From sequence record NC_052653.1: a stretch of DNA of 64,000 bases. The stretch is one strand, 5' to 3'. Origin of the DNA: Escherichia phage vB_vPM_PD06. Under the pieces are notes generated by a model, which did not search any database, was not told where the DNA came from, and worked only from the letters and a program-made list of their open reading frames with translations. Of this stretch, positions 11,915 to 46,425 are shown piece after piece (position 1 is the stretch's first letter; every line of letters starts with the position of its first letter). Both the position numbers and the translations under genes were made by a program.

Positions 11915-11975
11915 CGTTATCATACTTTAAATCTAACATAAAACTATCTTGCTTGTCAAGTAGTTTTTAAAACTT

Positions 11976-12325: not shown

Positions 12326-12356
12326 ATATAGGAGATGCATAGCATCTCCTTTTAAA

Positions 12357-28260: not shown

Positions 28261-28824
28261 ATGGCTAAACTTTATTTCCGATATAGTCCGATGAACAGTG
28301 GTAAAAGCACACATCTTCTACAAACAGCTTGGAACTATAAAGAAAGAAATATGAAAGTTCTTCTTTTAACTTCAGCTTTAGATACCAGATCTGGTGGTGC
28401 TATTGCTTCTAGGATAGGTATTAAAGAGGAAGCAAAACCAGTTAAAACAAAAGAAGATATGCTGGAAATTTATACACAACTTAAAGAGAATCCAGTAGAT
28501 GCAGTATTTGTGGATGAATCACAATTCCTAACTAAAGATATGGTTGACATTCTTGGAGATGTGGTAGACAATTACGATATTCCTGTATTCTGCTATGGAC
28601 TTAAAACAGATTTTGCTACAGAATTGTTTGAAGGTTCTGAACGGTTATTAGCCATAGCAGATTCAATTACAGAATTGAAAAGCATTTGTAAATGTGGAAG
28701 AAAAGCTATTTTCAATGCTAGACTTATCGACTCTAAAGAACAGATTGTTATTGGAGGAGAAGACATTTACGAAACAATGTGTAGAAAATGTTATAACAGG
28801 AGAAATAATGCGTCTAGTATGTGA
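28261..28824 (+). CDS. tdk: Thymidine kinase
   Basis: P-loop YSPMNSGKSTHLLQTA, VFVDESQFL, C-terminal zinc site CKCGRKA ... CRKCY. Confidence 0.9.
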   Translation: MAKLYFRYSPMNSGKSTHLLQTAWNYKERNMKVLLLTSALDTRSGGAIASRIGIKEEAKPVKTKEDMLEIYTQLKENPVDAVFVDESQFLTKDMVDILGDVVDNYDIPVFCYGLKTDFATELFEGSERLLAIADSITELKSICKCGRKAIFNARLIDSKEQIVIGGEDIYETMCRKCYNRRNNASSM

Positions 28825-29398
28825 TTGGGATTTAGTAATAGCTCCAGCGGATATAGAATGGTTAAATTGGTTAAATGCGGTAAGTAGATCTAATATCAAA
28901 TTTGATAAGACACATAAAACTGTGCACTATGATATTACGAAATATTTCCCTGATTTTAAAAAGCAATTTGGTGTAGATCCTTACTCTTTTTGGGATAACC
29001 AACATCTATATGATACTATGGGAGTAGTACCTAATAGTACAGATGTTGTTCATCGTATAATTGCAAATGGATCTAATATATCTATAGCGAGCCACACTAA
29101 AGGTGGACACCTTAGTTCTAAATATAGACACGTAACACGATCTTTAGATAAAGTGGATTTTAGTAGAACATCTGGTAATGGTTTTTTCGCAACAAAAGAA
29201 AAATACTTATTACCTTGCGATGTAACTATTGACGATAGGGCTGAAAATCTTGTCCTGTTTCCAGATGAAACGTTGAAAATATATTTCAACACTATTTACG
29301 AAGATCCATATTTGGAAGAGTTAAAGAAACTTCCTAATGTAATTATCACTGGTTTAGACAATCAGTGGGAAGAAATTGAAAGTATTTTACTACCTTAA
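28808..29398 (+). CDS. HAD-like phosphatase, possible deoxyribonucleotidase
   Basis: ATG at 28808 with AGGAG upstream; N-terminal DxD-type motif VCDWDLVI; sits between tdk and thyX. Confidence 0.4.
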   Translation: MRLVCDWDLVIAPADIEWLNWLNAVSRSNIKFDKTHKTVHYDITKYFPDFKKQFGVDPYSFWDNQHLYDTMGVVPNSTDVVHRIIANGSNISIASHTKGGHLSSKYRHVTRSLDKVDFSRTSGNGFFATKEKYLLPCDVTIDDRAENLVLFPDETLKIYFNTIYEDPYLEELKKLPNVIITGLDNQWEEIESILLP

Positions 29399-29407
29399 GG
29401 AGAAATA

Positions 29408-30379
29408 ATGACAAATTCTATTTCAGCAAAAATTATTGCACACTCTCAAACATCCGAAGGTAAGGATATTGTTACCTTTGAACTTGAATATCCTCGAATC
29501 ATTCACTCTGAATTGATGACGCATCGTTTGTTTTCTCGTAATGCAGCATCAAGTCGAGCTATCCCTGTTAAAACTCTAATTGAAATGGTACGGCAATCTC
29601 CAGCACGTCCTTATCGTTTTGGTGCTAACCAACCAGGTATGCAAGATAAAGGCACAGATCACGATGCCCTGATTGATGCAGGTTACACTGCAAAAGAATG
29701 GTGGGACTTGGCTGCTCTAAGTGCTGCACGTTTTGCAGAAGAGTTTGCCCTTGCTGGTTATCATAAACAGGTTGCAAACCGCCTACTAGAACCATTTCAG
29801 CGTATGAAGACTGTAGTAACCACTACAGAACTAGAAAACTTCTTGTGGTTGCGCGTAGATGCTGATGCAGATCCTACTATTGAGGCTCTTGCTAAAGAAA
29901 TTAAAAAACTGTATGAATCTTCTGAACCATATCTTCTTTTCCCAGGAGAATGGCATACACCTTACGTTAATCGTGATCGAGATCCAGAAACTGGTATGAT
30001 CCGTTATTTCTTGGGTGAAACCTTCTCCAACGAGAAAATGTTGACAGAAGACGAAGCAAAAGCTATTTCAGCTTCTTGTTGCGCTCAGGTAAGTTATCGT
30101 AAGTTGAATGATACTAAAGATAAAGCATTGGATATCTATTCTCGTTTGCTGTCTGGACAAAAGGTACATGCATCTCCGTTTGAACACCAGGCAACGCCAA
30201 TGAAAGAAATGGATTTGTCAGGATTAAAACAACAGAAAGGTGGTATTAATATTCCTCCGTTCCCTTCCTCTTGGGAAGAAGGTATTACACACATGGATCG
30301 TAAACATCGTTTGTGGAGTGGAAACTTCTGTGGTTGGATTCAACATCGTCAACTTTTGACAAACCATACAAAATGGTGA
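29408..30379 (+). CDS. thyX: Flavin-dependent thymidylate synthase ThyX
   Basis: ThyX signature RHRLFSRNAASSRA; 323 aa. Confidence 0.9.
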   Translation: MTNSISAKIIAHSQTSEGKDIVTFELEYPRIIHSELMTHRLFSRNAASSRAIPVKTLIEMVRQSPARPYRFGANQPGMQDKGTDHDALIDAGYTAKEWWDLAALSAARFAEEFALAGYHKQVANRLLEPFQRMKTVVTTTELENFLWLRVDADADPTIEALAKEIKKLYESSEPYLLFPGEWHTPYVNRDRDPETGMIRYFLGETFSNEKMLTEDEAKAISASCCAQVSYRKLNDTKDKALDIYSRLLSGQKVHASPFEHQATPMKEMDLSGLKQQKGGINIPPFPSSWEEGITHMDRKHRLWSGNFCGWIQHRQLLTNHTKW

Positions 30380-31159: not shown

Positions 31160-33421
31160 GTGACTCAGTATCTAAGCAAATCTATCCGTTATGTAACAAA
31201 AACAAACGGCAAGAAAGAAGAATTTAATCCAGAAAAACTTCGTAAATGGTCAGAGTTTGCTGCTGGTAAATTAAATTGGTCTGAAATTGAACTTGAAGCT
31301 GTTAAACGTTGTTACGACGGTGTGCCTACTCGTGATTTACATAAAGCTATGATAGCAGCATGTATTGATAAGAAAGATCAGGCATACAGTGATATGGCAG
31401 GTCGGTTACTTCTTGGTATGATTTATAAACAGGCTCATGGGGGATATCACAATATCCCCTCCCTCCTGGATTTCTACAATATGTCTGTAAGTAAAGGCTA
31501 TTGGGGAAAAATGGATTATACAGAAGAAGAAATTATTGAGATTGGTAAGATTGTCAATCACGATAAAAACCTAACTTATGGTTATTCCGTACTGCGCCAG
31601 ATGGTTGATAAGTATCTTGTGAAAGATGCGATCAATGATGTTGTTTTTGAATCACCACAGTTTTTATTTATTGGTGTAGCAATGAAGGTAATGGAAATCC
31701 AACCAAAAGATCGCAGAGTAGAAGACATTAAACGTCTATATACCTACGTAAGTGATCTTAAGATTAATTTACCATCGCCTTATTTAACAACTTTGCGTAC
31801 TAAGATTAAAGGTAGTGCTTCTTGTTGTCTGTTTAGAGCAGATGATACAGCAGAATCTTTAGCAATTGCTAACTATCTTGCGCATGAATATACATTGAAT
31901 AATGCAGGTATTGGTGTTAACCTTCAAACCCGTGCCACAGGACAAGGTGTTAAGAACAACCGTATCGTTCACGGTGGTCTTTTACCATATCTGAAATGGA
32001 TGGAGACAAGTGTTGGAGCATCAAAACAAGCAAGTCGTGGTGGAAGTGCAACAGTAACGTTTACAATACTAGAACCTGATTTTGAAGATCTGGTACGTTT
32101 GAAAAACCCAACTACTGTTAGTGAAAAACGAGTAGATAAACTTGATTACTCTATCGTAGTAAACAATGCTTTCCTGCGCCGTGCAGCAAAAGGTAAAGAT
32201 TGGATGCTAGTTAGTTATGACGAAGCACCAGAACTCTATGAGGCGCTTTATAAAAGCGAGGAAGAGTTTGAAGAAGTATATGAAAAAGTTAGTCGCAAAC
32301 GTATTAAGAAGAAGTTTGTAAAAGCACGAGATCTTCTGGCAGAAATTATTACACAAAGAGCAGAGACAGGACGTATTTATATGTTCTTTGCGGATAATGC
32401 TAATAGGCATACTCCGTTTAAGGATGTTATTTATCAGTCAAACTTGTGCCAAGAAATTTTCTTACCTACGAAAGCATTTCACAATATGACTGATCTTTTC
32501 ACAGGTGAGAATACAGAAGATCAAGAATTGGCATTATGCTTCCTGTCTTCTATTGTAGCTGGTCGTGTTACACCAGAAGAATATGAAGATGTTGCATATT
32601 ATACAGTTCTAACTATTGATAATGTTATTGAAACAATGCAGTATCCGTTTAAACATAACGAAATCACTGCTAAAGCACGTAGGTCTATCGGTGTAGGTAT
32701 TACAAACCTTGCACATTATCTGGCAAGTAATTTTGTTACTTATTCAGATCCTTACGGCAAAAAACTAATTCACGAATTAGCAGAAAGGCATTATTACTGG
32801 TTAGCAAGAGCTTCTCTTCGTTTGGCAAAAGAGAAGGGTAATGCACAATGGATGCATAAAACCAAATGGCCTGAAGGATGGTTGCCTATTGACACCTACG
32901 CTAAAGCTGTAGACGATATTGGCAATTTTAAACTTAAAATGGATTGGGAAGGTTTACGACAAGATATCATTGCACAAGGTGGTATCCGAAATAGTGTATT
33001 AGCAGCTATTGCTCCAAATGAGTCCAGTAGTCTTGTAAGTAATACGACTAACTCTGTGTATCCTGTACGTGATACTATAGTTTATAAACAAAGCCAAAAA
33101 GGTAATGTTCTGTTTATTGTGCCAGATTACGATAAACTAAAAGATATTTACCAATCGGCTTGGGATACACCAGATAAAGATATGGCTGAAGCATATGGAC
33201 TGTTGACTAAATTCTTAGATCAAGGTGCATCATGTGATAAGTGGATTGACTATTCTAAGATGGAAGGTGGTCGTTTATCCATTAAATCAGAAATGCAATA
33301 TATTCTTCAGTTTGCAAAACTTGGTGGTAAATCTTTGTACTATCTAAATAGCAGAACAAAATCGGCAACCTCACTCGCTCAAGAGGATGAAGAATCCGGT
33401 TGTGAGTCTTGTAAGATGTAA
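31160..33421 (+). CDS. nrdA: Ribonucleotide reductase large subunit (class I, NrdA-type)
   Basis: Active-site NLCQEI, C-terminal CESCKM redox pair, 753 aa; GTG start with GGAGAGG upstream. Confidence 0.9.
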   Translation: MTQYLSKSIRYVTKTNGKKEEFNPEKLRKWSEFAAGKLNWSEIELEAVKRCYDGVPTRDLHKAMIAACIDKKDQAYSDMAGRLLLGMIYKQAHGGYHNIPSLLDFYNMSVSKGYWGKMDYTEEEIIEIGKIVNHDKNLTYGYSVLRQMVDKYLVKDAINDVVFESPQFLFIGVAMKVMEIQPKDRRVEDIKRLYTYVSDLKINLPSPYLTTLRTKIKGSASCCLFRADDTAESLAIANYLAHEYTLNNAGIGVNLQTRATGQGVKNNRIVHGGLLPYLKWMETSVGASKQASRGGSATVTFTILEPDFEDLVRLKNPTTVSEKRVDKLDYSIVVNNAFLRRAAKGKDWMLVSYDEAPELYEALYKSEEEFEEVYEKVSRKRIKKKFVKARDLLAEIITQRAETGRIYMFFADNANRHTPFKDVIYQSNLCQEIFLPTKAFHNMTDLFTGENTEDQELALCFLSSIVAGRVTPEEYEDVAYYTVLTIDNVIETMQYPFKHNEITAKARRSIGVGITNLAHYLASNFVTYSDPYGKKLIHELAERHYYWLARASLRLAKEKGNAQWMHKTKWPEGWLPIDTYAKAVDDIGNFKLKMDWEGLRQDIIAQGGIRNSVLAAIAPNESSSLVSNTTNSVYPVRDTIVYKQSQKGNVLFIVPDYDKLKDIYQSAWDTPDKDMAEAYGLLTKFLDQGASCDKWIDYSKMEGGRLSIKSEMQYILQFAKLGGKSLYYLNSRTKSATSLAQEDEESGCESCKM

Positions 33422-33461: not shown

Positions 33462-33797
33462 ATGCCTACATTAGTTGTATTACCTGGGGCAACACCACAA
33501 AGACGCTGGGGAAATTATACACTGGTAGATAGTAAAGATTTTACATTCGATTGGTGTTGTCATTATATTGCAGGTTTTCAATTTTCCAGTGTTGAAATAT
33601 GGGCTTCCAATGATCCCATAGCTACCTGGTATGCTTTAACCAGAGCAAGGTATGAGGGAGAGGTTACTATACTACTCACAAAGAGTGTATGGGACGCATT
33701 AGAGAAGGCTTACATAGAGAATGGTATGGAGAGAAAACACATTGATACAATAAAAGCAATGTGTGATATCGTGGAGGATTTAAATGGCAGCGATTAA
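33462..33797 (+). CDS. Hypothetical protein
   Basis: ATG at 33462 with AGGAGG upstream; about 111 aa. Confidence 0.4.
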   Translation: MPTLVVLPGATPQRRWGNYTLVDSKDFTFDWCCHYIAGFQFSSVEIWASNDPIATWYALTRARYEGEVTILLTKSVWDALEKAYIENGMERKHIDTIKAMCDIVEDLNGSD

Positions 33798-34869
33798 TTT
33801 ATACAACGACACTTACAAAGAAGGTTTCTACCCTGTATTTTTGGGAGAACAGTTAGGTATTTTTGATTCTATTAATGTAACATACCCAGAAATGCATCGT
33901 CTGTACAAACTACAAAAACAGCAAGATTGGGATGAAAACGAAGTAAACTTAGATCAGACACGAAAAGATTTCGTAGCTTGTTCTAAAAGCAACTACGATG
34001 TTATGATCAAAAACCTATCCTTCCAATGGGAAAATGATTCACTTGCTAAATCAATCATCACTTTGTTTGCACCATTTTTAAGCAACAACGAAGCATGTGC
34101 AATGATGATGAAGCAATCAGAAATGGAAGTTCTACACGCTTTGACATATTCTGAAATTATTCGTCAGTGTATCCCTAATCCAAATGAAGTTATCGATCAG
34201 ATTATGGAGAACGAAAGAATCTTCCAGAGGATGGGTATAGTTGAAGAGGTAATGAGTGATCTGGCAGAGGCAGGACATAAATATGCTCTAGGTCTGATTG
34301 AGAAGGATGATAACCTTCGTCTACTGATCCTGAAAGGAATGATTGCACTTATCGGTCTGGAAGGCATTCAATTCATATCCTCTTTTGCTGCAACATTTGC
34401 CTTAGCAGAGCAGCAACTGTTTGTAGGTGCAGCTAAACTCATTCAAAAAATTATGTTGGATGAACTATTGCACGTTAAAATGGATTATGCTATTATTGAT
34501 GCACTGCTGAAAGATCCTGTTTGGAGAAAAGTATACGAAGATAATATCGACGTTCTGACAGAAATTCTTGACACGGTAGTTGGACAAGAGGAAGATTGGT
34601 GTGACTATCTGTTTAGTGAAGGAAGGGTTATCGTTGGTGGTAACGCAGAGTTGTTCAAACTTTGGGTTTACTTCAATGCTGCGCCTATCTATCGCAGACT
34701 GAAAATGAAACACAAATTCCGTGCACCGAAGAAAAGTCCACTGCCTTGGATGGATGTTTGGTTAAATCCAGATCAAATTCAAGCAGCAGCACAGGAGATC
34801 CAAATTACAGCTTACAAACTGAATTCAGCAAATAAAGATGTAAGTGATGACGAGGAGTTAGACTTCTAA
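33784..34869 (+). CDS. nrdB: Ribonucleotide reductase small subunit (NrdB-type)
   Basis: Di-iron ligand segments EMEVLHALTYSE and GLEGIQFISSFA; acidic C-terminal tail DDEELDF. Confidence 0.85.
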   Translation: MAAINLYNDTYKEGFYPVFLGEQLGIFDSINVTYPEMHRLYKLQKQQDWDENEVNLDQTRKDFVACSKSNYDVMIKNLSFQWENDSLAKSIITLFAPFLSNNEACAMMMKQSEMEVLHALTYSEIIRQCIPNPNEVIDQIMENERIFQRMGIVEEVMSDLAEAGHKYALGLIEKDDNLRLLILKGMIALIGLEGIQFISSFAATFALAEQQLFVGAAKLIQKIMLDELLHVKMDYAIIDALLKDPVWRKVYEDNIDVLTEILDTVVGQEEDWCDYLFSEGRVIVGGNAELFKLWVYFNAAPIYRRLKMKHKFRAPKKSPLPWMDVWLNPDQIQAAAQEIQITAYKLNSANKDVSDDEELDF

Positions 34870-35740: not shown

Positions 35741-35938
35741 ATGATGCTAGATCAACTGATCAATGCTCCTCGCGTAACAGTAAGTCCAAAAACATTTGCA
35801 TCACTTTTAGAAGATGCTAGAGAGGTTTATAACTTTACTGAAGAAGAGCTTCCTGTTCCTGTTGAAAAAGGTTCCAGATGGTTGTTTTATGAAGGTATTA
35901 TTTTTACTGAAGGGAATAATTGGAAGGAGACTAAATGA
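35741..35938 (+). CDS. Hypothetical protein
   Basis: ATG at 35741 with GGAGGA upstream; 65 aa. Confidence 0.4.
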   Translation: MMLDQLINAPRVTVSPKTFASLLEDAREVYNFTEEELPVPVEKGSRWLFYEGIIFTEGNNWKETK

Positions 35939-36924
35939 AATACTTAGTAACAGGTGGTTTAGGCTTTATTGGAAGTGCGGTAGTTCGTTTCCTAGCTAAA
36001 AATACTAAGAATGATATTTACGTTATAGATAAATGGGGTTACGCTTCAGACCCTAGAAATTTATCAGAAACACCTAATGTAAAGTTTTGTCGTGTTGACT
36101 TGACAAATGCTCAGTTAACTGCTAAGATTGTGGCAGATGTTAACCCAGATTATATAATGCATCTTGCAGCAGAAAGTCACGTAGATAATTCAATAGCATC
36201 ACCGAGTGTTTTTATAAATTCAAATATTGTTGGAACATTTAATCTTCTAGAAGCTGTTCGTTTAATGGGAGATAAATCAAATCTTAAAATGTTTCATCAT
36301 ATTTCAACAGATGAAGTGTATGGTGATATGGAAGAAGGGGATTATCCGTTTACAGAACAGAATCCTTATAAACCAAGTAGTCCATATGCTGCATCTAAAG
36401 CTGCAAGCGATCATTTGGTAAGAGCGTGGCATCGTACTTATGGTATTCCGACAGTTATAACAAATTGTTCAAATAATTTTGGAGCGTATCATCATCCAGA
36501 AAAACTAATACCTAAAACGATAACAAATATCTTGATGCATAAACCAATCCCTGTTTATGGCAATGGTCTTCAAGTAAGAGACTGGCTATACGTTGACGAT
36601 CACGCAGAAGCATTACACCTAGTAGTAACTAAAGGCAAATCTGGAGAAACATATAATATTGGGAGCAGAAACCCTAGAACTAATATTGATGTAATCTATA
36701 TGATTTGTGATTATATGGATGCGGTATATCCATCTGAAACAGATGCTTGTAGCCTCATTGAGATGGTTACAGATAGGCCTGGGCATGATCTAAGATATGA
36801 AGTGAATCCTTATAAGATTGAAAAGGAATTAGGGTGGAAAGCTAAAGGCACATTTGAAGAAAAACTTTATTCAACCATTGATTGGTATGTAGATAACAAA
36901 GAGTGGTGGGAAAATAAAGTTTAA
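35935..36924 (+). CDS. rmlB: dTDP-glucose 4,6-dehydratase
   Basis: N-terminal TGGLGFIGS Rossmann motif, catalytic YAASK, STDEVYG. Confidence 0.85.
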
Positions 36925-36932
36925 GGAGGAGT

Positions 36933-37802
36933 ATGAAAGGTATTATCTTAGCAGGTGGTAGTGGAACAAGACTTTACCCAGTTACTAAAGGGGTTAGTAA
37001 ACAACTATTACCAATTTATGATAAGCCTATGATTTATTATCCACTCTCTGTCCTAATGCTTTCTGGAATTAGGGAAATACTAATAATTACAACACCAGAA
37101 GATCAAATTAATTTTGTAAATCTTCTAGGTGATGGTTCTTCTTTTGGTATTTCCCTACAGTATGCAATACAGGATAGTCCAAGAGGTTTAGCAGAAGCGT
37201 TTATTATTGGTGAGAACTTTATTGGTGAAGATTCTGTAGCACTTGTGCTAGGTGATAATTTATTCTTTGGTCAGAGTTTTGGTAGCATTTTAGATTCTGC
37301 TAAAGAACATATTGAAAAGAATGGTGGAGCTAATATTTTTGGGTATCACGTAAATGATCCTGAAAGATTTGGTGTTGTTGAGTTTGATTCTGAAGGTACA
37401 GTGGTAAGTATTGAAGAAAAACCAAAAGCACCAAAAAGCAACTATGCAATTACAGGCTTGTACTTTTACGATAATTCTGTTATACAGAAAGCTAAAAGCG
37501 TTAAGCCTTCTGCTAGAGGGGAGTTAGAGATTACAGATATAAATGAGATGTACTGGAAAGAAAAGGCTTTACGTGTCTGTAAGCTAGGAAGAGGTTTCAC
37601 TTGGCTGGATACAGGAACACATGAAAGTCTTATGGAAGCATCTCAATTTGTTCATGCAATAGAAAAGCAACAAGGTATGAAGGTTGCATGCCTAGAAGAG
37701 ATTGCTTTTAAAAATGAATGGATTACTTTAGATTCTGTAAAAAGTTCTGGAGAGGTTTTAAGTAAAACAGACTACGGCAAGTATTTACTTAAATTAAAAT
37801 AA
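36933..37802 (+). CDS. rmlA: Glucose-1-phosphate thymidylyltransferase
   Basis: N-terminal [16 protein letters not shown] and [18 protein letters not shown]. Confidence 0.9.
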
Positions 37803-37814
37803 GGGGGAGATTAA

Positions 37815-38369
37815 ATGATTCAAGCAACAAAAATCGAAGATTTGTTGATCATTCAACCTGACGTTTACGGGGATGAACGTGGTTTTTTCTTAGAAAGTTT
37901 TAATCAGGCTTTATATGATCAATACATAGGTAAACAAAACTTTGTCCAAGATAACCATTCACGTTCTATTCGAGGAGTTCTACGTGGGCTTCATTTTCAA
38001 AAGAAAAACCCACAAGGGAAGTTAGTACGTTGTGTTCGTGGTGAAGTTTATGATGTTGCTGTAGATATTAGGGTTGGTAGTCCAACATTTGGAGAATGGG
38101 TAGGTGTTCTTTTATCTGAAAAGAATAAAACACAATTTTGGATTCCTCCTGGTTTCGCTCATGGCTTTGTTGTGATTAGCGACATTGCTGATTTTGAATA
38201 TAAATGTACAGAATATTACGATCCGACTTCAGAGTGTAGTCTTGCGTGGAATGATCCAGATATCAATATAGATTGGGGTTTTGATTTAATCTTTAATGAT
38301 ATTAATTTTAAACCTATCTTGTCACAAAAAGATCAGGAAGCCAAAACACTAAAGGAGATCATATTTTGA
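37815..38369 (+). CDS. rmlC: dTDP-4-dehydrorhamnose 3,5-epimerase
   Basis: DERGFFLESF, RGLHFQ, WIPPGFAHGF cupin motifs; 184 aa. Confidence 0.85.
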   Translation: MIQATKIEDLLIIQPDVYGDERGFFLESFNQALYDQYIGKQNFVQDNHSRSIRGVLRGLHFQKKNPQGKLVRCVRGEVYDVAVDIRVGSPTFGEWVGVLLSEKNKTQFWIPPGFAHGFVVISDIADFEYKCTEYYDPTSECSLAWNDPDINIDWGFDLIFNDINFKPILSQKDQEAKTLKEIIF

Positions 38370-39196
38370 CAAAATTTTTAATCTTTGGTTCAAAAGGTCA
38401 ATTAGGACAATCTTTGGCAAAAGTTGCACCAGAAGATGTTATTTTGATTGAAGCAAGTGATATAGACATTACCAACTTTAAAGATGTTATGAATAGTCTT
38501 GTACAGCACGTGCCTGATGTTGTTGTGAATTGTGCGGCTTACACGGCAGTAGATAAAGCTGAAGAAGATGTTAACACCTGTATAAATGTTAATGCATACG
38601 GTGCAACAAACATTGCCAAAGCATGTAATGATTTACTGATACAGTTTGTACATATTTCAACAGACTATGTTTTTGATGGACATGTTGCTGGCACAGAAGA
38701 GAGTAAAACAAACCCCTTGAACACCTACGGTTACAGTAAACAATTAGGTGAAACTTTAGTACAAGCAGTTTGTCCTACAGCACTTATTATCAGAACAGCT
38801 TCTGTTTATAGTGAATTTGGACATAACTTTTTGAAAACTATGTTGGAACGCTACAACGGTGGTCAAAAAGAATTTAATGTAGTATGTGATCATTTATCAT
38901 GTCCTACTTATGCACCTGATCTTGCAGAAACAATTTTTAAACTTGTAAAAGATGGTGTAAATAGTAAAATTGTACACTATGCAGGTGCAGATTATATTTC
39001 TTGGTATGATTTTGCACGTAAGATATTTCTTGTTATAGATTTGTCTGTTACAGTTAATCCTGTATCTGCTTCAACCTATAATTCTAAAGCAGTCAGACCA
39101 GCAACATCTTATTTAAAAACAGATCCTACTTTAAATCCGCGAAGTGTTGATAGCGGTATTGTAAGAACTTTAACTATACTTTTAAACAAGGAGTGA
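38366..39196 (+). CDS. rmlD: dTDP-4-dehydrorhamnose reductase
   Basis: N-terminal LIFGSKGQLGQ, NCAAYTAVDKAE, STDYVFDG; TTG start overlapping rmlC stop. Confidence 0.8.
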   Translation: MTKFLIFGSKGQLGQSLAKVAPEDVILIEASDIDITNFKDVMNSLVQHVPDVVVNCAAYTAVDKAEEDVNTCINVNAYGATNIAKACNDLLIQFVHISTDYVFDGHVAGTEESKTNPLNTYGYSKQLGETLVQAVCPTALIIRTASVYSEFGHNFLKTMLERYNGGQKEFNVVCDHLSCPTYAPDLAETIFKLVKDGVNSKIVHYAGADYISWYDFARKIFLVIDLSVTVNPVSASTYNSKAVRPATSYLKTDPTLNPRSVDSGIVRTLTILLNKE

Positions 39197-39198
39197 AA

Positions 39199-39459
39199 AT
39201 GAATTTTATTATCTACGGTAAACCAAATTGTCCTTTCTGCACTAACGCTAAGACTCTACTGGAACAGCGTGAACAGGATTTTAAATATCTTACCTTAGAT
39301 GAAGACTATTCTTTAGATCAGATTCAGAATCTGGTTTTAGAGAAAACAGGTGTTCTGCCACGTACCTTTCCTCAAATTTTTGTGGAAGATGGTGAACATC
39401 TAACCCACGTAGGAGGTTTTTCTGAACTACGTGAATTCATGGCTCAGATTGCGGAGTAA
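39199..39459 (+). CDS. Glutaredoxin-like protein (NrdH/Grx-type)
   Basis: CPFC active site in MNFIIYGKPNCPFCTNAK; AAGGAG 5 nt upstream. Confidence 0.75.
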   Translation: MNFIIYGKPNCPFCTNAKTLLEQREQDFKYLTLDEDYSLDQIQNLVLEKTGVLPRTFPQIFVEDGEHLTHVGGFSELREFMAQIAE

Positions 39460-39473
39460 CAATATGAAAGGTA

Positions 39474-39608
39474 AACAGAAACGTAAGATCTTTTCTCGTG
39501 CTTTGGCAACAGAGCTTAAGTCCCAAACTAAAAAGACGAAGCCTAAACGTGAAATGTCTCCTGAACACCTACTGTTTCAAGAGCTAGATCATGGGGAGGG
39601 CGACTAAT
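39474..39608 (+). CDS. Small basic protein
   Basis: 45-aa Lys/Arg-rich ORF; weak RBS. Confidence 0.3.
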
Positions 39609-39619
39609 ATAAGGAAAAC

Positions 39620-40120
39620 ATGGCTAAAGTAGTTGATGTGTTTGATATGTTACGTTTTGATGAAGGACTAAAGCTAACTGTATATACTGATACCGAAGGG
39701 TATTGGACAGTTGGTATTGGACACCTTCTGACAAAACTCAAAGATAAAGCAGAAGCTATACGCATTCTTGATAACTTAGTAGGTAGAAAAACCAATGGGG
39801 TTATTACTGAAGCGGAAGCTAGAAGAATCTTTGAGAGTGACGTAAAGAAAGCGATACAACAAATCCATTCAAGCACCATATTATCTCCTATTTACGATAA
39901 AGTAAGCCCTAATCGTAAAATGGCTATTATTAATATGGTATTTCAAATGGGATTGAAAGGTGCAGAATCTTTCAAAAATAGCTTAACTTTAGTGAGTAAT
40001 TCATATTATACTCAAGCCTCTATAAATTTACGTAAAAGTAAATGGTATCGCCAAACGCCTAATCGCGCAGAGCGTGTAATTCAGGTGCTTAAAACTGGAA
40101 CATTAGACGCTTATAACTAA
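39620..40120 (+). CDS. Endolysin, T4 lysozyme (e)-type
   Basis: MLRFDEGLKLTVYTDTEGYWTVGIGHLLT matches T4 lysozyme catalytic Glu/Asp/Thr region; C-terminal SKWYRQTPNRAERVI. Confidence 0.9.
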   Translation: MAKVVDVFDMLRFDEGLKLTVYTDTEGYWTVGIGHLLTKLKDKAEAIRILDNLVGRKTNGVITEAEARRIFESDVKKAIQQIHSSTILSPIYDKVSPNRKMAIINMVFQMGLKGAESFKNSLTLVSNSYYTQASINLRKSKWYRQTPNRAERVIQVLKTGTLDAYN

Positions 40121-40122
40121 AC

Positions 40123-40146
40123 AAAGGGGCGAAAGCCCCTTTTATA
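40123..40146 (+). terminator. Rho-independent terminator
   Basis: AAAGGGGC-GAAA-GCCCCTTT followed by TA-rich U tract. Confidence 0.7.
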
Positions 40147-40158
40147 AGGAGTGCAAAC

Positions 40159-40911
40159 ATGGGAAATAAAACCGCAAAGGCTCGTCGTCAATCAGCAGCC
40201 AATGATGACAAACGTGCCAGTCGTTATGCGGCTAAAGCAGTAGGAAATGATGATTACCGTCTTGATGAATTTACCCCTGTTGGGAATCAAGAAGCTATTG
40301 TAAGAAGCATGGTTTGGAATGATTTAACCATTGTTAATGCCCCAGCAGGAACAGGAAAAACGACAACAGCACTATGGAAAGCATTGCAAATGCTTAAAGC
40401 TGGTGACTTCAGAAAGTTGATTTTCCTTAAAAACCCGACAGAAGTAGGTGATGACCAAATTGGTTTCTTATCTGGAGATAAGACTGATAAACTAGCAGCA
40501 CACTACGAGTCAACTAAAAGAATTTTCCAACAGTTTATGACTGCAAATAAATTGGAAAACGATATTGCAAGTGGCAAAATTGAACTTAATATTCCGAACT
40601 ATGCACTAGGTGCTACGTGGGATAACAGCATTATTCTTATTGATGAAGTTCAACTTATGTCACCAAACACAGTAAAACTTCTCCTTGAGCGAGCAGGTCT
40701 TAATACACGTATTGTCATTATGGGCGATGTTAATCAAACATATGCAATTAAACGAAGAGCTAACGGGTTAGGTGATTTGTTAGATCGTGTTGTTCCTATT
40801 AACGAAGAAGGAGAAAGGGAAGCTATTGTAGATTTTATTGGTTATGTTGAAATGACAACTGCTGATAACCAACGTTCCCGTTTGTCTCAGTTCATCACGG
40901 AAGTATATTAA
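40159..40911 (+). CDS. phoH: PhoH-like ATPase
   Basis: Walker A NAPAGTGKTTTAL; 250 aa. Confidence 0.85.
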   Translation: MGNKTAKARRQSAANDDKRASRYAAKAVGNDDYRLDEFTPVGNQEAIVRSMVWNDLTIVNAPAGTGKTTTALWKALQMLKAGDFRKLIFLKNPTEVGDDQIGFLSGDKTDKLAAHYESTKRIFQQFMTANKLENDIASGKIELNIPNYALGATWDNSIILIDEVQLMSPNTVKLLLERAGLNTRIVIMGDVNQTYAIKRRANGLGDLLDRVVPINEEGEREAIVDFIGYVEMTTADNQRSRLSQFITEVY

Positions 40912-40947
40912 TAATTACAAGGCAAGGATGCCTATTATGGAGGTTAA

Positions 40948-41442
40948 ATGACGCTAATTGAGATTGATCGCAATGGTATTGATGAATGCTATCAAGCTGG
41001 CTTAGTTAAGCCGAATGAGTTTAGACAGATTTATATTGACAAGATTGAAAAAGAAATATCTCTTCGTTTAGAGAACATGACAACTTTGCAAAAAGTTCAG
41101 ATGTTTTTTAGTTGGTTAAAAGGAGAGGATTGGCTAACTAAATATTACCAGGAATTATCTGATAGTCAAGAAGGCTTGTTTGAGTGTATAATAAATGTAG
41201 CTGGGTCTAATTCAGAATTACTCCTGATTGATGAAGAAGATTCTAAACTTCTTTTTCTTAGCAGTATCTTTCACAAGAAATCTATGTTAGTAAGAAATTG
41301 CAGTGATTTACTAAATCATCCACTAACAAGAACCAATAAAATTCTTGTGGATAAAGAAACACTAAGAGCTATTGATTACCTACGTAAGTATGTAAGCGGT
41401 GGTAAAGCAGTCCTTAAAACACTACAGGAGGAAGTACAATGA
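40948..41442 (+). CDS. Hypothetical protein, translationally coupled to HslV-like gene
   Basis: 164-aa ORF; stop overlaps downstream start (ATGA). Confidence 0.5.
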   Translation: MTLIEIDRNGIDECYQAGLVKPNEFRQIYIDKIEKEISLRLENMTTLQKVQMFFSWLKGEDWLTKYYQELSDSQEGLFECIINVAGSNSELLLIDEEDSKLLFLSSIFHKKSMLVRNCSDLLNHPLTRTNKILVDKETLRAIDYLRKYVSGGKAVLKTLQEEVQ

Positions 41443-42092
41443 CAACAATTATTGCAACACATAACAAAATTCTATCTGACGGTAAAGTAACAGTAGGTAA
41501 TCGAGTAGACACTTTAAATTTCAAGAAAGTGCGTAAAATTGGGGATTACCTTGTTGGTGGTGCAGGACGTCTGTCTTCTATCCTGACTTTCTTTTCTTGG
41601 TTTGAACAAAACTTACAGTGCCAGGCAGCACAAGAGACAATCCCAGGTTTGGTGATCCAATCAGACCCTGATAAAGAAGATGAAGAGTTTGTGGCATTGG
41701 TTGTTCACCCAGACGGTAAAATTTATATGCACGAGGGTAATAATCCAACGCGAGCATATCCTTTAACTGAAGATTACTATGCTGTTGGTAGTGGGGCAGA
41801 TTTTGCTTTAGCAGCTTTAGACGCTGGGGCAACCCCAGAAGAAGCGATGGAAGTTGCAAAACTACGAGATGCTTTTTCAGGCGGTGAAACTTTTGTTGAA
41901 GAGATCGAAGAACAACTGGAGCTAACAGCGGAAGATATTCTGAACTTCAGCAAGGAGCAACTAATTAGTATGCTGTTGACTGGTGATCCTGATAGTGATG
42001 AAGCTGAAAGTATTTTAGCAGAAATGAAAGAATCACAAGAAAAAGTATTGACAGTCTCTGAAAAACTTGATAAAGTATCCTCTGATAATTAA
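41439..42092 (+). CDS. HslV / proteasome beta-subunit-like Ntn peptidase
   Basis: N-terminus MTTIIATHN with Thr at position 2; GGAGRLS; GSGADFALAALDAG matches HslV GSG motif; acidic C-terminal extension. Confidence 0.65.
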   Translation: MTTIIATHNKILSDGKVTVGNRVDTLNFKKVRKIGDYLVGGAGRLSSILTFFSWFEQNLQCQAAQETIPGLVIQSDPDKEDEEFVALVVHPDGKIYMHEGNNPTRAYPLTEDYYAVGSGADFALAALDAGATPEEAMEVAKLRDAFSGGETFVEEIEEQLELTAEDILNFSKEQLISMLLTGDPDSDEAESILAEMKESQEKVLTVSEKLDKVSSDN

Positions 42093-42102
42093 TCTAACAT
42101 AA

Positions 42103-42123
42103 ACCCCCTCACGGGGGTTATTA
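42103..42123 (+). terminator. Rho-independent terminator (weak U-tract)
   Basis: AACCCCC-TCAC-GGGGGTT hairpin. Confidence 0.5.
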
Positions 42124-42132
42124 GGAGGAGAT

Positions 42133-42564
42133 ATGTTACCAGTACCTGTAATCTTTGTAGAAAAAGCCTACTACTACTCTTTAGAACAAAACTGTAAAAG
42201 GGCTAAAAATTTTATTGAAAGTTTAGCAGAACAGCGTTACACTGTATCTAAAAAGGGATGGTTCAGAACTTCAAAATATCTAGTCAACCCTTTCGGAGAA
42301 GTTCGTGTGTTGTACGGCAACACAGAAAATATCTTAGAAAGAATGTTAGAACTAGATAGGATCTCCTCCTGTGATTATCAACTGTTGAAATTTTACGATG
42401 TGTCAGAAAGCGTTAAAAACTTTCTTGACGACTTATGTAAACGAAAAACAGAAGAAGATACAATACCAGTATCTATGGAAGAATTAACGTTCTTAAGAGA
42501 TATTATGGTTTTTGAAGAAAACCCTGAAATCACAAAAGAGGAGATTTTAAGTAGTGGCAAATAA
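42133..42564 (+). CDS. Hypothetical protein
   Basis: 143-aa ORF. Confidence 0.5.
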   Translation: MLPVPVIFVEKAYYYSLEQNCKRAKNFIESLAEQRYTVSKKGWFRTSKYLVNPFGEVRVLYGNTENILERMLELDRISSCDYQLLKFYDVSESVKNFLDDLCKRKTEEDTIPVSMEELTFLRDIMVFEENPEITKEEILSSGK

Positions 42565-43063
42565 GTATGATCGTCCACCAACTGATTACTATCCTACTCC
42601 ACAAAAATGTATAAATGCATTATTTAGTGTAATAGATTTTAATAACCTTAAAGAAGAAGGTTTTATTTTTGCAGAACCGTGTAAAGGCGCTGCTGCTGCA
42701 ATTTATCAACACTTTCCAGAAGGATCAGAATATTGTGAGTTAGAAGAAGGGAAGGATTATTTTAACCACGAATGGCATACTAAGCCGGATATTATAATCA
42801 CAAATCCACCATTCAGACTTGCACTTGAGTTCTTGCAAAAGAGCTTAAAAGAAGCAGACGTTTGCATATACTTGTTGCGTCTTGGGTTCCTAGAGTCTAT
42901 TAAACGAAGGGAATTCCATAAACAGAATCCACCAACAAATTTGATTGTTCTTTCTGAACGACCATCTTTTGTTGCAGGTGGTACTGATAAGACAGCATAT
43001 GCTTGGTACGTCTACGACCCAAAAAACAGGCTGGGTTTAACTCAACCTTTCTATTTTGTTTAA
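42554..43063 (+). CDS. Minimal N6-adenine methyltransferase-like protein
   Basis: Motif order YYPTP, FAEPCKGAAAA, IIITNPPF; only 169 aa so no target-recognition domain. Confidence 0.45.
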   Translation: MANKYDRPPTDYYPTPQKCINALFSVIDFNNLKEEGFIFAEPCKGAAAAIYQHFPEGSEYCELEEGKDYFNHEWHTKPDIIITNPPFRLALEFLQKSLKEADVCIYLLRLGFLESIKRREFHKQNPPTNLIVLSERPSFVAGGTDKTAYAWYVYDPKNRLGLTQPFYFV

Positions 43064-43076
43064 GAGGAGCATTTTT

Positions 43077-43307
43077 ATGACCGAGAAATTTATTGTTACT
43101 ATGGAACTCACCTTTGATGAAGAAGATTTTGATCTTCACGTATCAACTAAAGCAGATAACATTCACACGACACAGAGTGTTGCAATCGCTATGTTCTTTA
43201 AGCAAGCAATTGCAAAACAAGCTGAAGTGTGTGCTGGTTTAGCTGTAGAGTACGCAGAAGTTGTCAAGGTTCTTGAAAGTGCTCGCAACAACGATTGGGA
43301 TGAATAA
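43077..43307 (+). CDS. Hypothetical protein
   Basis: ATG at 43077 with GAGGAG upstream. Confidence 0.4.
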   Translation: MTEKFIVTMELTFDEEDFDLHVSTKADNIHTTQSVAIAMFFKQAIAKQAEVCAGLAVEYAEVVKVLESARNNDWDE

Positions 43308-43510
43308 TGGCATACAATTACTATCTGGTATATTTTAACGAAACTAAGAAAAAAGACACAGGAACTAATGTTTATGCGGAATCCGAAGAACACGCAAAAG
43401 CTATTGGTTCAGTGCTTCTTTCTAGAATAGCAGGTGAAGAAATTCCTGTAGAGGCTATCTTTGCAGAAGTTGACCCTGGTATTCAAGAAGATGATATTAC
43501 CACTACTTAA
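43307..43510 (+). CDS. Hypothetical protein
   Basis: 67-aa ORF. Confidence 0.4.
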   Translation: MAYNYYLVYFNETKKKDTGTNVYAESEEHAKAIGSVLLSRIAGEEIPVEAIFAEVDPGIQEDDITTT

Positions 43511-43567
43511 CTGTTGACTTTAACATTAAGGTAGTGCATACTTCCTGCAACAGAACAGGAGGGTATT

Positions 43568-44230
43568 ATGAAGTTTGTACTGTATCATCGACTTTCTAAG
43601 AAGAAACAACAAGGCAACCAGTATGGTATAGAATCACAGGAAGCAGATATCCAACGCTTCCTGGATTCACAAGAAAACTATACTATTGTAGGTAGCTTTG
43701 CAGAGTTTTATTCTGGTAAAGGCGATTGGAAGCAACGTAGAGAGCTTGTAAAAGCTGTTAATCTTTGCAAAGAAACAGGTGCTACACTTGTTGTTGCTAA
43801 GGTTGACCGTCTTGGACGTAACACAGCTTCTGTTGCAACCTTGTTAGAGATGATTAATGTACGGATAGCAACTATGCCCTCCGCTGAAAATATGATAATA
43901 AATATTTTAGCAGTTCTGGCAGAAGAAGAGGCTCGTGCAATATCTGATCGTGTTAAGAAGAGCCTTAAGGTAGCAAAAGCGAAGGGAACGCTTCTTGGTG
44001 CAGCAAACCCTAAATACAAAAGAACAGATTATACGAAAACGGAAGAAGCAAAACGCTCAAAAGAGTTTGCGCTTTCTTTAAAAGATTCTTTAGTTGCATA
44101 CAGAGCTTGTAAAACGCCATATATGACGATTGCAAAGCATCTGAATGAATCAGGAAAGAGAACTATTCGTGGGAGTTTGTTCGATGCCAAAGCGGTACAA
44201 CGTCTTTGTGCAAAATTGAATATTAAATAA
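43568..44230 (+). CDS. Serine recombinase (resolvase/invertase family)
   Basis: Catalytic region YHRLSKKKQQGNQYGIESQ, LVVAKVDRLGRN, C-terminal HTH-like tail; 220 aa. Confidence 0.75.
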   Translation: MKFVLYHRLSKKKQQGNQYGIESQEADIQRFLDSQENYTIVGSFAEFYSGKGDWKQRRELVKAVNLCKETGATLVVAKVDRLGRNTASVATLLEMINVRIATMPSAENMIINILAVLAEEEARAISDRVKKSLKVAKAKGTLLGAANPKYKRTDYTKTEEAKRSKEFALSLKDSLVAYRACKTPYMTIAKHLNESGKRTIRGSLFDAKAVQRLCAKLNIK

Positions 44231-44239
44231 GGAGGAAAC

Positions 44240-44443
44240 ATGGCAGTTCAATCTTTTGAGGAGACTGTTAAAAAACAATTCCTATCGAAGCGAGCGATGG
44301 TTGAATTTTTGCATTTTCTCGAAGTAGATAGGGTACTTATTGAGACTACACCAGATGGTAACTGGCAAGTCTCGTATATTGCCACCAGGCATATCGTAGA
44401 CAGTACGAAAGAAGAAAGTTCGGAAGTTACGGTTGCTAGTTAA
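44240..44443 (+). CDS. Hypothetical protein
   Basis: 67-aa ORF with GGAGGA upstream. Confidence 0.4.
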   Translation: MAVQSFEETVKKQFLSKRAMVEFLHFLEVDRVLIETTPDGNWQVSYIATRHIVDSTKEESSEVTVAS

Positions 44444-44454
44444 AGGAGTTAAAT

Positions 44455-45027
44455 ATGCGTTTAGCTTTTAACGGGAAGATAAGCACAGCAAACATATTGT
44501 CAGCAGTAGGATTATTAGGTAAAAAATTTACACCTTTCAGTTTACCAGTTTGTGTAGATTTTGATCATGTGTTCGATATTAATAATCCTTCACGTTGTAT
44601 CGCCAGAAGTAATATTGATAACCCAAGTGAAAATCTGTTTTATATTACTAAACCATCCCAGGCAATTTTGAATCAATGGGAAGCAGGTCTGATTAAACCA
44701 GGTAAATATTTTGCATTACTACCTTGTAAATCATTGGCTATAGAGGACAGTCTAAACTATGCAAACAATCTTGTTGTTACAGCATTCATTGTCTCAGAAA
44801 AAGAAGAAACTGCGGCACTTGCAAATACTGTTAAATCTTTGTATGATGCTTTGGGTGTTACTTACACTACATTCGTTTGTGAAGATATTCCACATTGCGT
44901 TGAATTTGTAGTAAATGGTGTAACTGTATGTCGTGTAGAAACAACGCAAGATGAGGACGTTTTTATTACTGTAGCCGATGTAATATCTGAACCTGTGTTT
45001 AGTTACGCAGTTTCATTAACACATTAA
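44455..45027 (+). CDS. Hypothetical protein
   Basis: 190-aa ORF. Confidence 0.5.
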   Translation: MRLAFNGKISTANILSAVGLLGKKFTPFSLPVCVDFDHVFDINNPSRCIARSNIDNPSENLFYITKPSQAILNQWEAGLIKPGKYFALLPCKSLAIEDSLNYANNLVVTAFIVSEKEETAALANTVKSLYDALGVTYTTFVCEDIPHCVEFVVNGVTVCRVETTQDEDVFITVADVISEPVFSYAVSLTH

Positions 45028-45037
45028 GGAGAAGGGG

Positions 45038-46415: not shown

Positions 46416-46425
46416 GGAGAAAACC

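Follow-up and report, generated by a model that had tools for sequence, protein, structure and literature searches.

The rml genes and their surroundings

The four genes of a dTDP-L-rhamnose pathway are located on the plus strand of the window, as the whole 64-kb stretch of DNA analysed here is called. The first of them, rmlB (35935..36924, 329 aa), encodes a dTDP-D-glucose 4,6-dehydratase and is followed by rmlA (36933..37802, 289 aa), encoding a glucose-1-phosphate thymidylyltransferase, and by rmlC (37815..38369, 184 aa), encoding a dTDP-4-dehydrorhamnose 3,5-epimerase. The last gene, rmlD (38366..39196, 276 aa), encodes a dTDP-4-dehydrorhamnose reductase and begins with a TTG start that overlaps the rmlC stop by 4 nt. 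The GC content of the rml genes (0.345–0.354) is near that of the remaining window.

According to the annotation of relatives, the upstream edge of the slot occupied by these genes is nrdB (33784..34869, plus strand), the small subunit of ribonucleoside-diphosphate reductase, preceded on the same strand by nrdA (31160..33421), the large subunit of ribonucleotide reductase. The downstream edge is a glutaredoxin gene (39193/39199..39459, plus strand; Pfam Glutaredoxin, 49.2 bits), with a start that in GenBank relatives is the ATG equivalent to 39199; this gene is part of the ribonucleotide-reductase module and is separate from the sugar pathway. Further upstream, a thymidine kinase (28261..28824), a divergent ThyX-like gene (29408..30379), and an NT5C-like nucleotidase (within 28261..30379; annotation and a weak Pfam NT5C match), all annotated in relatives and all on the plus strand, form a block that is co-directional with rml and gives it a context of dTTP supply. 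Against TIGR02170, with its cut-off of 87.9 bits, the ThyX-like protein reaches only 35.8 bits. A scan of the region from 27 to 41 kb for sigma-70 promoters and terminators gave a number of sites not above that in shuffled sequence, and the rV5 'late promoter-like' motif TGGTAAAATA was found 18 times against 10.4 ± 3.2 expected, with no clear enrichment and no positional pattern.

Membership of each protein in its Rml family was judged by the curated equivalog cut-offs of NCBIfam, all of which are exceeded (E-values 1e-76 to 4e-142): RmlB scores 441.7 bits against TIGR01181 (cut-off 365.1), RmlA 472.5 bits against TIGR01207 (360.65), RmlC 259.8 bits against TIGR01221 (155.75), and RmlD 254.3 bits against TIGR01214 (224.05). 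The Pfam assignments are consistent with these matches. In the alignment with the solved structure of Salmonella RmlB (1g1a, ~60% identity), the catalytic TDE triad and the YxxxK motif (YAASK) are kept in the phage enzyme, which also has the NAD-binding GxxGxxG. Phage RmlA is ~70% identical over its full length to Salmonella RmlA (1iim), contains the nucleotide-binding loop GGSGTRL (GGSGTRLYP), and has the length of the short form (~290 aa). RmlC is ~65% identical to 1dzr, with His63, Lys73, and Tyr133 (1dzr numbering) all kept. The best solved relatives of RmlD are 1vl0 from Clostridium and 3sc6 from Bacillus, at ~40% identity, and compared with these its motifs GxxGxxG, STDYVFDG, and YGYSK are intact. 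The comparisons thus confirm the four ORFs as true RmlABCD orthologues with intact catalytic residues. The margin of RmlD over its cut-off is only 30 bits, so that, judged by sequence, its product may also be 6-deoxy-L-talose, the C4 epimer. The preliminary description of this DNA had reported all four dTDP-L-rhamnose enzymes between ribonucleotide reductase and a glutaredoxin, co-directional with tdk and thyX; both the flanks and the profile search of the four proteins agree with it.

Phage origin and conservation of the cluster

The window belongs to a phi92-like coliphage (Justusliebigvirus) and represents another isolate of a known genus, being 98.5–99% identical in nucleotide sequence to published genomes already annotated with rml. 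At least 80% of the query is covered in 51 phage records, identity is 95–99% in 53, and phi92 has a 100% identical RmlC. Among 5,426 complete E. coli genomes, the best match covers at most 52% of the query and is ~65% identical to it in nucleotides; the gene order differs as well, being rfbBDAC in the host and BACD in the phage. Host DNA or contamination is ruled out by this low identity, the different order, and the near-identical phage records. The genes are therefore phage-encoded, as first proposed, rather than host DNA flanked by phage sequence, a reading with which their synteny in phAPEC8 also agrees. In that phage, which belongs to another genus (Phapecoctavirus), the same slot between nrdB and the glutaredoxin gene (grx) holds the genes in the same order, rmlBACD. 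The glutaredoxin gene directly follows rmlD both there and in Klebsiella phage FKP3. Identity of nrdB is 84% in phAPEC8 and 89% in FKP3, that of nrdA is 86.5% in phAPEC8, and the Rml proteins of the two genera are 54–72% identical. Between the window and the genome of phage muut, 33 of the codon differences in rml are synonymous and 8 are non-synonymous. Such comparisons show long vertical retention of the rml genes under purifying selection. The rml cluster of 'Acinetobacter phage MD-2021a' was rejected as a further phage example, its record being an ordinary bacterial chromosome.

The presence of the pathway in this phage group is already known, as is the idea of DNA glycosylation: Olsen 2020 (PMC7552041) termed the pathway "peculiar" and proposed that idea, and according to Maffei 2021 the pathway confers no restriction resistance. 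In the literature searched, no functional study of phage rml genes was found.

Glycosyltransferases outside the window and the proposed use of the donor

Neither annotation nor searches reveal a glycosyltransferase in the window, so the initial observation that none is visible stands for these 64 kb. It does not extend to the genome, since in the near-identical genomes of muut and vB_Eco_J-01 a run of four glycosyltransferase genes lies ~70 kb from rml; the apparent lack arises because the window boundary excludes this cassette. In muut, the transferases gp047, gp046, gp045, and gp044 are located directly upstream of the primase/helicase and DNA polymerase. Both loci are found among replication and nucleotide-metabolism genes and not among late structural genes.

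Of the transferases, two are small enzymes of the GT-A type that contain DxD motifs, and the other two are paralogous GT4-like GT-B enzymes; all are soluble, with no TM segment detected in any of the four (maximum KD19 1.21), and three are acidic (pI 5.1–5.6). They match PHROG glycosyltransferase families with E-values of 1e-79 to 1e-149, and an NCBIfam scan of the four gave zero matches. AF2 models (pLDDT 89.6 and 94.3) predict one GT-A and one GT-B/GT4-like fold. A Foldseek search of the PDB and BFVD with the gp046 model returned only a generic minimal GT-A fold (STIV A197), with unnamed best viral matches, and thus does not indicate the acceptor, and a sequence search of PDB chains with gp046 gave nothing meaningful. 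The gp044 model is likewise a generic GT4-like GT-B, resembling BshA, MshA, PglA, GtfC, and SdgB, with TarM among the matches.

RmlC and the transferases have a common distribution over ~129 Stephanstirmvirinae genomes, with record counts of 52+77 for RmlC, 52+77 for gp047, 53+71 for gp046, and 51+74 for gp044, and a tblastn search gave no sign of rml or of these transferases in rV5-like phages. This distribution shows the rml genes to be co-inherited with the transferases.

In the mechanism that we propose, phage RmlABCD would convert Glc-1-P and dTTP to dTDP-Glc and then, by way of dTDP-4-keto-6-deoxy-Glc and dTDP-4-keto-L-rhamnose, to dTDP-L-rhamnose. Co-transcription of the pathway with the phage dNTP-supply genes would assure the donor in any host, regardless of its O-antigen genes and also in the face of host shut-off. 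The four soluble glycosyltransferases of the phage would consume dTDP-rhamnose and together assemble, in the cytoplasm, an oligosaccharide that contains rhamnose. Such use of dTDP-rhamnose is most likely, although the distance of ~70 kb between the two loci counts against it and donor specificity is not readable from sequence, and the chances that a functional, phage-owned rml pathway feeds a rhamnose donor to the phage's own transferases seem to us evenly balanced.

Natural variants bear on this proposal. In FKP3, the nrdB–grx slot holds only rmlC and rmlD, while orthologues of gp047 and gp045 are found in the same transferase cassette before the primase/helicase. This combination suggests that the conserved core consists of the last two steps together with the transferases. 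Host enzymes of the RffG/RffH type, matched in every E. coli genome, can supply the intermediate for RmlC and RmlD. In two more distant, metagenomic relatives, L008 and L022, the transferase cassette itself contains one SDR dehydratase/epimerase of a different kind. FKP3, L008, and L022 resemble the present phage in the cassette before the primase/helicase and in the nrdB–grx slot, and the different sugar-nucleotide enzymes found by lineage suggest a lineage-specific sugar.

A rival reading is a metabolic role without any glycan, in which the pathway is a sink for dTTP or Glc-1-P, or RmlC and RmlD drain the ECA precursor dTDP-4-keto-6-deoxyglucose and so leave less ECA receptor. The rml genes do adjoin those for dTTP supply, FKP3 keeps exactly the two enzymes that act on the ECA branch-point intermediate, and relatives have been called bona fide ECA-targeting phages (PMC8594841). 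A dTTP sink, however, requires RmlA, whereas FKP3 dispenses with precisely RmlA and RmlB, and in the coliphages these two enzymes would enlarge the pool of dTDP-4-keto-6-deoxyglucose rather than drain it. With the co-occurrence of rml and four transferases over ~129 genomes, and a sugar-nucleotide enzyme embedded in the transferase cassette of other lineages, such a role is highly improbable.

Candidate acceptors and comparison with known systems

For the proposed use of the donor by the phage transferases, the preliminary description had named three acceptors: DNA, a virion protein, and host envelope glycans. Remodelling of the envelope would consist in adding rhamnose to undecaprenyl-linked intermediates of O antigen, ECA, or capsule, and the changed envelope or tied-up lipid carrier would lead to superinfection exclusion or to fewer progeny lost on cell debris. 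Rhamnose in Enterobacterales is chiefly an O-antigen sugar, and the closest cellular relatives of RmlA, RmlB, and RmlC are those of host rfb. Soluble enzymes resembling GT4 and GT2 typically take part in the assembly of O antigen, teichoic acid, and N-glycans, and the fold matches include PglA and TarM; deoxysugar clusters occur in cyanophages, and several fibres of these phages recognise surface glycans (PMC8594841). The phage, however, is strictly lytic, and the annotation of the complete muut genome lists no GtrA/GtrB/GtrC-type flippase, bactoprenol glycosyltransferase, serotype-specific membrane transferase, or any other membrane component, the transferases themselves having no TM segment. 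A new glycan would need host Wzx, Wzy, and WaaL inside one latent period, and the rml genes are kept in phages grown on K-12, a host without O antigen. On balance, the envelope is an unlikely acceptor.

Hypermodification of DNA would place rhamnose, globally or at specific sites, on a hydroxylated pyrimidine, possibly by C5-methylation, oxidation, and glycosylation as in TET-phage systems. The location of rml in a nucleotide-metabolism operon and of the transferases next to the primase/helicase and DNA polymerase is in line with this, as is the C5-cytosine methyltransferase encoded by the phage (48260-49249). A match of gp046 to the TET-associated glycosyltransferase PF20691 (E 1.6e-4) covers only the DxD region and, at 22.1 bits, is below the cut-off of 27.5; that to phrog_842, the T-even beta-glucosyl-HMC alpha-glucosyltransferase, is also weak (E 4.5e-5). 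Published precedent exists for phage sugar-nucleotide genes and several transferases acting on DNA (PMC13326640; bioRxiv 10.1101/2023.12.21.572611), in addition to the proposal of Olsen 2020. Against this, a Pfam scan of 37 ORFs without a secure assignment, taken from the window and muut, which could miss very divergent hydroxylases, gave no match to TET/JBP, a 2OG oxygenase, or a ThyA-type hydroxylase. The sole thymidylate-synthase homologue is of the ThyX type and is annotated as common to rV5 and PVP-SE1, and tblastn gave no sign of rml or the transferases in rV5-like phages. The C5-methyltransferase is missing from FKP3, although RmlCD and transferases are kept there; the GT-B models resemble GT4, with neither the T4 alpha- nor beta-glucosyltransferase among the top 50 PDB matches; and all transferases but one are acidic. 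In addition, phi92-like phages, when challenged with a set of RM systems, proved 'exceptionally susceptible' (PMC8594841). Bulk DNA is disfavoured as acceptor because the scan yielded no base hydroxylase and because the phages are sensitive to restriction, and hypermodification, the least favoured of the three acceptors, is quite unlikely. Sparse or site-specific rhamnosylation, dependent on a base-activating enzyme that has diverged beyond recognition by Pfam, would fit the sensitivity to restriction observed in laboratory work and would add to the known DNA modifications a new one, a rhamnosylated nucleobase; we regard it as very unlikely. Candidates for such an enzyme are some unassigned ORF or the atypical ThyX-like protein.

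The acceptor that we tentatively propose for the phage transferases is a protein, most likely a component of the virion. A lead in this direction is a distant homologue of gp047 (34% identity) positioned between the terminase and portal/major capsid genes, with a GT2, a polysaccharide deacetylase, and two Methyltransf_24 genes as neighbours, together with homologues of gp046 in mycobacteriophages that are annotated as glycosyltransferases (25–30% identity); both may point to a protein or virion acceptor. Against this, neither the rml genes nor the transferases lie among late structural genes, gp046 has the weak, sub-threshold similarity to DNA glycosyltransferase families noted above, and in blastp gp047, gp046, gp045, and gp044 have no detectable similarity to the three glycosyltransferase genes of Che8, gp108-110 (best E 0.35). 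The cryo-EM paper on phi92 (3–3.9 Å; PMC13450770) does not mention glycan, glycosyl, sugar, 'extra density', or 'unassigned', which is a mere non-mention.

The four donor genes and four transferases constitute a conserved eight-gene module, for which the comparative pattern offers concrete genes and natural variants, namely the RmlCD-only arrangement and the lineage-specific sugar enzymes in the cassette. These phages, which therapy collections make use of, infect a very broad range of E. coli and Salmonella hosts, both smooth and encapsulated. If the acceptor is the virion, this would be the first case of virion glycosylation in a Gram-negative phage, with a bearing on immune recognition and pharmacokinetics; if it is DNA, the modification would be new; and if it is the host surface, a lytic-phage mechanism would exist for rewriting it.

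Compared with rfbBDAC of E. coli and Salmonella, the phage cluster has the same four families, chemistry, and catalytic residues, with RmlA, RmlB, and RmlC 60–70% identical to those of Salmonella, whereas its RmlD is closer to Firmicute-type enzymes. Unlike bacterial rfb, it lacks neighbouring wzx, wzy, and O-antigen transferase genes and is embedded in a ribonucleotide reductase operon. With the T4 alpha/beta-glucosyltransferases, the arabinosyl-5hoC system of RB69/DLP3, and the TET systems it shares a lytic phage, sugar-nucleotide synthesis, and several soluble transferases near replication genes; those systems, however, are defined by a hydroxylated-base enzyme, which was not found in this phage, a member of a restriction-sensitive group. 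Virion glycosylation by virus-encoded enzymes is similar in that the transferases belong to the virus. Mycobacteriophages of the Che8 type reportedly glycosylate their capsid and tail, whereas no evidence of virion glycans was found here. Chlorovirus and mimivirus have capsid or fibril glycans that contain rhamnose, and giant viruses, like this phage, also own their rhamnose donor independently of the host; theirs is UDP-L-rhamnose or GDP-D-rhamnose, in contrast to the bacterial dTDP route followed here. The closest counterpart is the rml cluster of phAPEC8 and phi92 (Stephanstirmvirinae; GenBank, Olsen 2020, Maffei 2021), which comprises the same genes and from which the present one differs in nothing material.

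Identity and setting of the rml genes

The four ORFs that the preliminary description had assigned to dTDP-L-rhamnose synthesis (35935–39196, +) lie at the positions proposed for them, on one strand and tightly packed, the first three being separated by 8 and 12 nt and the last two overlapping by 4 nt. With the curated NCBIfam equivalog cut-offs taken as the threshold for assignment, all four proteins pass: RmlB with 441.7 bits (cut-off 365.1), RmlA with 472.5 bits (360.65), RmlC with 259.8 bits (155.75), and RmlD with 254.3 bits (224.05). The Pfam assignments are consistent with these. In alignments to structures, RmlB is ~60% identical to its Salmonella counterpart (1g1a), with TDE and YxxxK kept, RmlA ~70% to Salmonella RmlA (1iim), with GGSGTRL kept, and RmlC ~65% to Salmonella RmlC (1dzr), with His63, Lys73, and Tyr133 kept, while RmlD is ~40% identical to the Clostridium (1vl0) and Bacillus (3sc6) enzymes and keeps the SDR Thr and YxxxK. 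Profile searches and structure alignments together establish the four proteins as the RmlABCD orthologs that they had been taken for.

The neighborhood is also as first described, with a glutaredoxin gene on the 3′ side of the block and nrdA, nrdB, a ThyX-like gene, and the thymidine kinase gene (tdk) upstream in the same orientation. The ThyX-like gene (29408–30379, +) is an atypical one: it encodes 323 residues and scores 35.8 bits against an NCBIfam thyX cut-off of 87.9, the match being confined to residues 22–175. The annotation of phAPEC8, from the sister genus Phapecoctavirus, notes its similarity to rV5 and PVP-SE1. Beside tdk and the ThyX-like gene, a further putative pyrimidine-pool enzyme is encoded by an ORF that overlaps the tdk 3′ end (28694–29398, +) and weakly matches the deoxypyrimidine 5′-nucleotidase family NT5C (E 7.9e-5; 23.0 bits, cut-off 24.8).

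Elsewhere, the window carries a cluster of 15 tRNA genes (9377–12432, −; Ile, two Met, two Leu, Phe, Pro, Gln, Gly, Thr, Asn, Tyr, Lys, and two Ser) and a C-5 cytosine DNA methyltransferase gene (48260–49249, +; Pfam DNA_methylase, E 1.3e-43). Further putative DNA methyltransferases include one at 42554–43063 and, as an N6/N4 methylase, gp036 of muut, a near-identical complete Justusliebigvirus genome. Genes for nicotinamide phosphoribosyltransferase (13180–14913, −) and ribose-phosphate pyrophosphokinase (14985–15878, −), both named from the annotation of relatives, and a Sir2-family gene (50581–51393, +), taken with the Macro-domain and NADAR-domain proteins that muut encodes outside the window, look like an NAD+/ADP-ribose toolkit, possibly serving counter-defence.

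Transferase genes in complete relatives

No glycosyltransferase is annotated or detectable within the 64-kb window, and to that extent the earlier remark that none was visible stands. It fails for the complete genome of muut, in which four consecutive genes (107413–110589) are annotated as glycosyltransferases, and the most striking aspect of the locus, a sugar donor without a transferase, is an artefact of the window edge. These genes, gp047 (187 aa), gp046 (228 aa), gp045 (324 aa), and gp044 (314 aa), lie ~70 kb from the rml genes, past the endolysin gene and immediately upstream of a small conserved ORF, the primase/helicase, and the DNA polymerase, and they are also present in vB_Eco_J-01, the closest relative of the window. 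Their products match PHROG glycosyltransferase families strongly and Pfam ones weakly. DxD motifs are found in gp047 (RDIDTMF) and gp046 (FDDDCYP), and gp045 and gp044 are paralogues with 41% identity. The AlphaFold model of a gp046 orthologue (77% identical; pLDDT 89.6) shows a minimal GT-A fold, with STIV A197 as the top PDB match. The model of gp044 (pLDDT 94.3) is of the GT-B type, like the GT4 enzymes BshA, MshA, PglA, GtfC/Gtf3, SdgB, and TarM, and its top 50 PDB matches do not include the T4 DNA glucosyltransferases. None of the four proteins has a transmembrane-like segment, and three are acidic, gp045 having a pI of 8.2.

Immediately upstream of the endolysin gene and the cassette, muut carries a tellurite-resistance-like module (37167–46508 in record L003) consisting of a HAD hydrolase, a ComF-like PRTase, a Macro domain, TerC, TelA, a vWA-TerF-like protein, and TerD, with synteny conserved in the distant relatives L009 and L022. 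The small ORF gp043 (6589–6858 in muut record L006), whose 89-aa product is very acidic (pI 4.1), is always located between the last transferase and the primase/helicase and is ~50% identical in relatives resembling Klebsiella phage FKP3; it could belong either to the transferase module or to the replication-side module.

In a tblastn search of 50,697 phage records, the donor genes and TRANSFERASES have nearly one distribution. RmlC and gp047 each match 52 records at identities of at least 95% and 77 at 60–80%, the corresponding numbers being 53 and 71 for gp046 and 51 and 74 for gp044; the organism names of the few remaining weaker matches per query give no sign of the rV5-like Vequintavirus genomes, which are numerous. 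Five of the records, MG065639, MG065645, MG065656, MG065689, and MG065650, are named 'Campylobacter phage' with C. jejuni as host. Over the rml and transferase genes they share 98.8% identity with E. coli Justusliebigvirus (B15 being Phapecoctavirus-like), and they are probably coliphage contaminants or mislabelled. 'Acinetobacter phage MD-2021a' (CAKLQH020000002.1, 254 kb) was rejected as an example of phage rml genes, being bacterial chromosomal sequence in which an ordinary rffG-rmlD-rfbA-rmlC cluster occurs together with glnE, ilvE, aspS, and a cobalamin transporter gene.

In FKP3, a more distantly related member whose whole genome was searched locally, the nrdB–grx slot holds only RmlC (78% identical) and RmlD (62%), and RmlA, RmlB, gp044, and the C5-methyltransferase are absent. 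Retained are gp047 (75%), gp045 (65%, with a frameshift in the sequence as deposited), and the small pre-primase ORF, with a gp046-like gene elsewhere, which points to a conserved core made up of one GT-A, one GT-B, and the two final steps of the pathway. The FKP3 counterpart of the GT-B gene gp045 (1794–2744 in record L016) aligns as three pieces in differing frames, its annotated product having 230 aa; the gene is a pseudogene, or else the frameshift arose in sequencing. Every one of 5,426 complete E. coli genomes matches the rml query, through what we take to be the ECA paralogues rffG and rffH, so that dTDP-4-keto-6-deoxyglucose can be supplied by the host. The cassette of L008 and L022, two metagenomic relatives, runs from a gp047-like gene through an SDR dehydratase/epimerase (354–355 aa), a gp046-like gene, a GT-B, and the small ORF to primase and PolA, an order that places a sugar-nucleotide enzyme, one that varies with the lineage, inside the transferase cassette. 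Jointly, the distribution and the FKP3 and L008/L022 patterns support the view that the pathway end product, rather than dTTP consumption, is what matters, and that the phage transferases would be its consumers.

Candidate acceptors of the proposed glycan

We infer the link between donor and transferases from their shared inheritance and from the way the cassette is built in relatives. A phage-owned dTDP-L-rhamnose supply line, presumably co-transcribed with dTTP-producing genes, would feed the four soluble transferases of the phage's own cassette, and these would build a rhamnose-containing glycan in the cytoplasm, most likely on a protein. The acceptor itself is a guess, and a protein, probably of the virion, is a tentative choice in which our confidence is less than even. 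One distant gp047 homologue sits between the terminase and the portal/major capsid genes, together with a GT2 gene, one for a polysaccharide deacetylase, and two of the Methyltransf_24 family. Another belongs to a large phage glycan cluster with aminotransferase, SDR enzyme, methyltransferase, and Stealth-like genes, and gp046 homologues are present in mycobacteriophages. Giant viruses encoding rhamnose synthesis put rhamnose on capsid or fibril glycans. Counted against a protein acceptor are a word search of the phi92 cryo-EM paper (3–3.9 Å), in which glycan, glycosyl, sugar, "extra density", and "unassigned" were not found, and the lack of any similarity found between gp044–gp047 and the Che8 transferases.

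The transferase enzyme types would also be compatible with a glycan of the host envelope as the acceptor, but these phages are lytic, no membrane component is annotated, and time for such remodelling is short; we consider it rather unlikely. For glycosylation of DNA speak the genomic neighborhood of the genes, good precedents, the C5-methyltransferase at 48260–49249, and gp046, which weakly resembles TET-associated and T-even DNA glycosyltransferases at scores below threshold. However, a Pfam search of 37 ORFs found no enzyme making a hydroxylated base, the sole thymidylate-synthase homologue is of the ThyX type and annotated as common to rV5 and PVP-SE1, and FKP3 does without the C5-methyltransferase. 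Moreover, these phages are restriction-sensitive, Maffei et al. (2021) describing phi92-like phages as "exceptionally susceptible" to RM systems, their putative dTDP glycosylation machinery notwithstanding (PMC8594841). DNA appears quite unlikely, and the remainder of our estimates goes to other targets. The acceptor of this conserved eight-gene module, in phages used therapeutically, is a directly testable question, sharpened by the RmlCD-only variant, by cassettes that include a sugar enzyme particular to their lineage, and by the failure to find a hydroxylase.

The rml block in its phage lineage

The rml region has 98.5–99% nucleotide identity to ~50 published E. coli Justusliebigvirus myophages (phi92-like, Stephanstirmvirinae), most of whose records already carry the dTDP-rhamnose annotation, and its RmlC matches the phi92 protein at 100% identity. 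The feature is already in the literature: Olsen et al. (2020, PMC7552041) called the pathway "peculiar" and put forward glycosylation of DNA, and Vitt et al. (2024) restate the points of both Olsen and Maffei; no functional study of phage rml genes was found in the literature searched. The feature is genuine, yet previously annotated and published, and the window represents a further isolate of a known genus.

phAPEC8 has the same order as the window (nrdA, nrdB, small ORFs, rmlBACD, grx, lysozyme, phoH), and between the two genera the Rml proteins are 54–72% identical, compared to 84–87% for NrdA/NrdB. Codon differences between the rml genes of the window and muut are mostly synonymous (33, with 8 non-synonymous). 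Together, these comparisons indicate that the block is an old possession of the lineage and evolves under purifying selection. That the genes are phage-encoded rather than host DNA, as originally proposed, is confirmed by GC content, by the E. coli genome search, and by gene order. Their GC content (0.345–0.354) is like that of the remainder of the window, and the best match among the 5,426 complete E. coli genomes has ~65% nucleotide identity over no more than 52% of the block. In the E. coli host the order is rfbB-D-A-C, whereas in the phage it is B-A-C-D.
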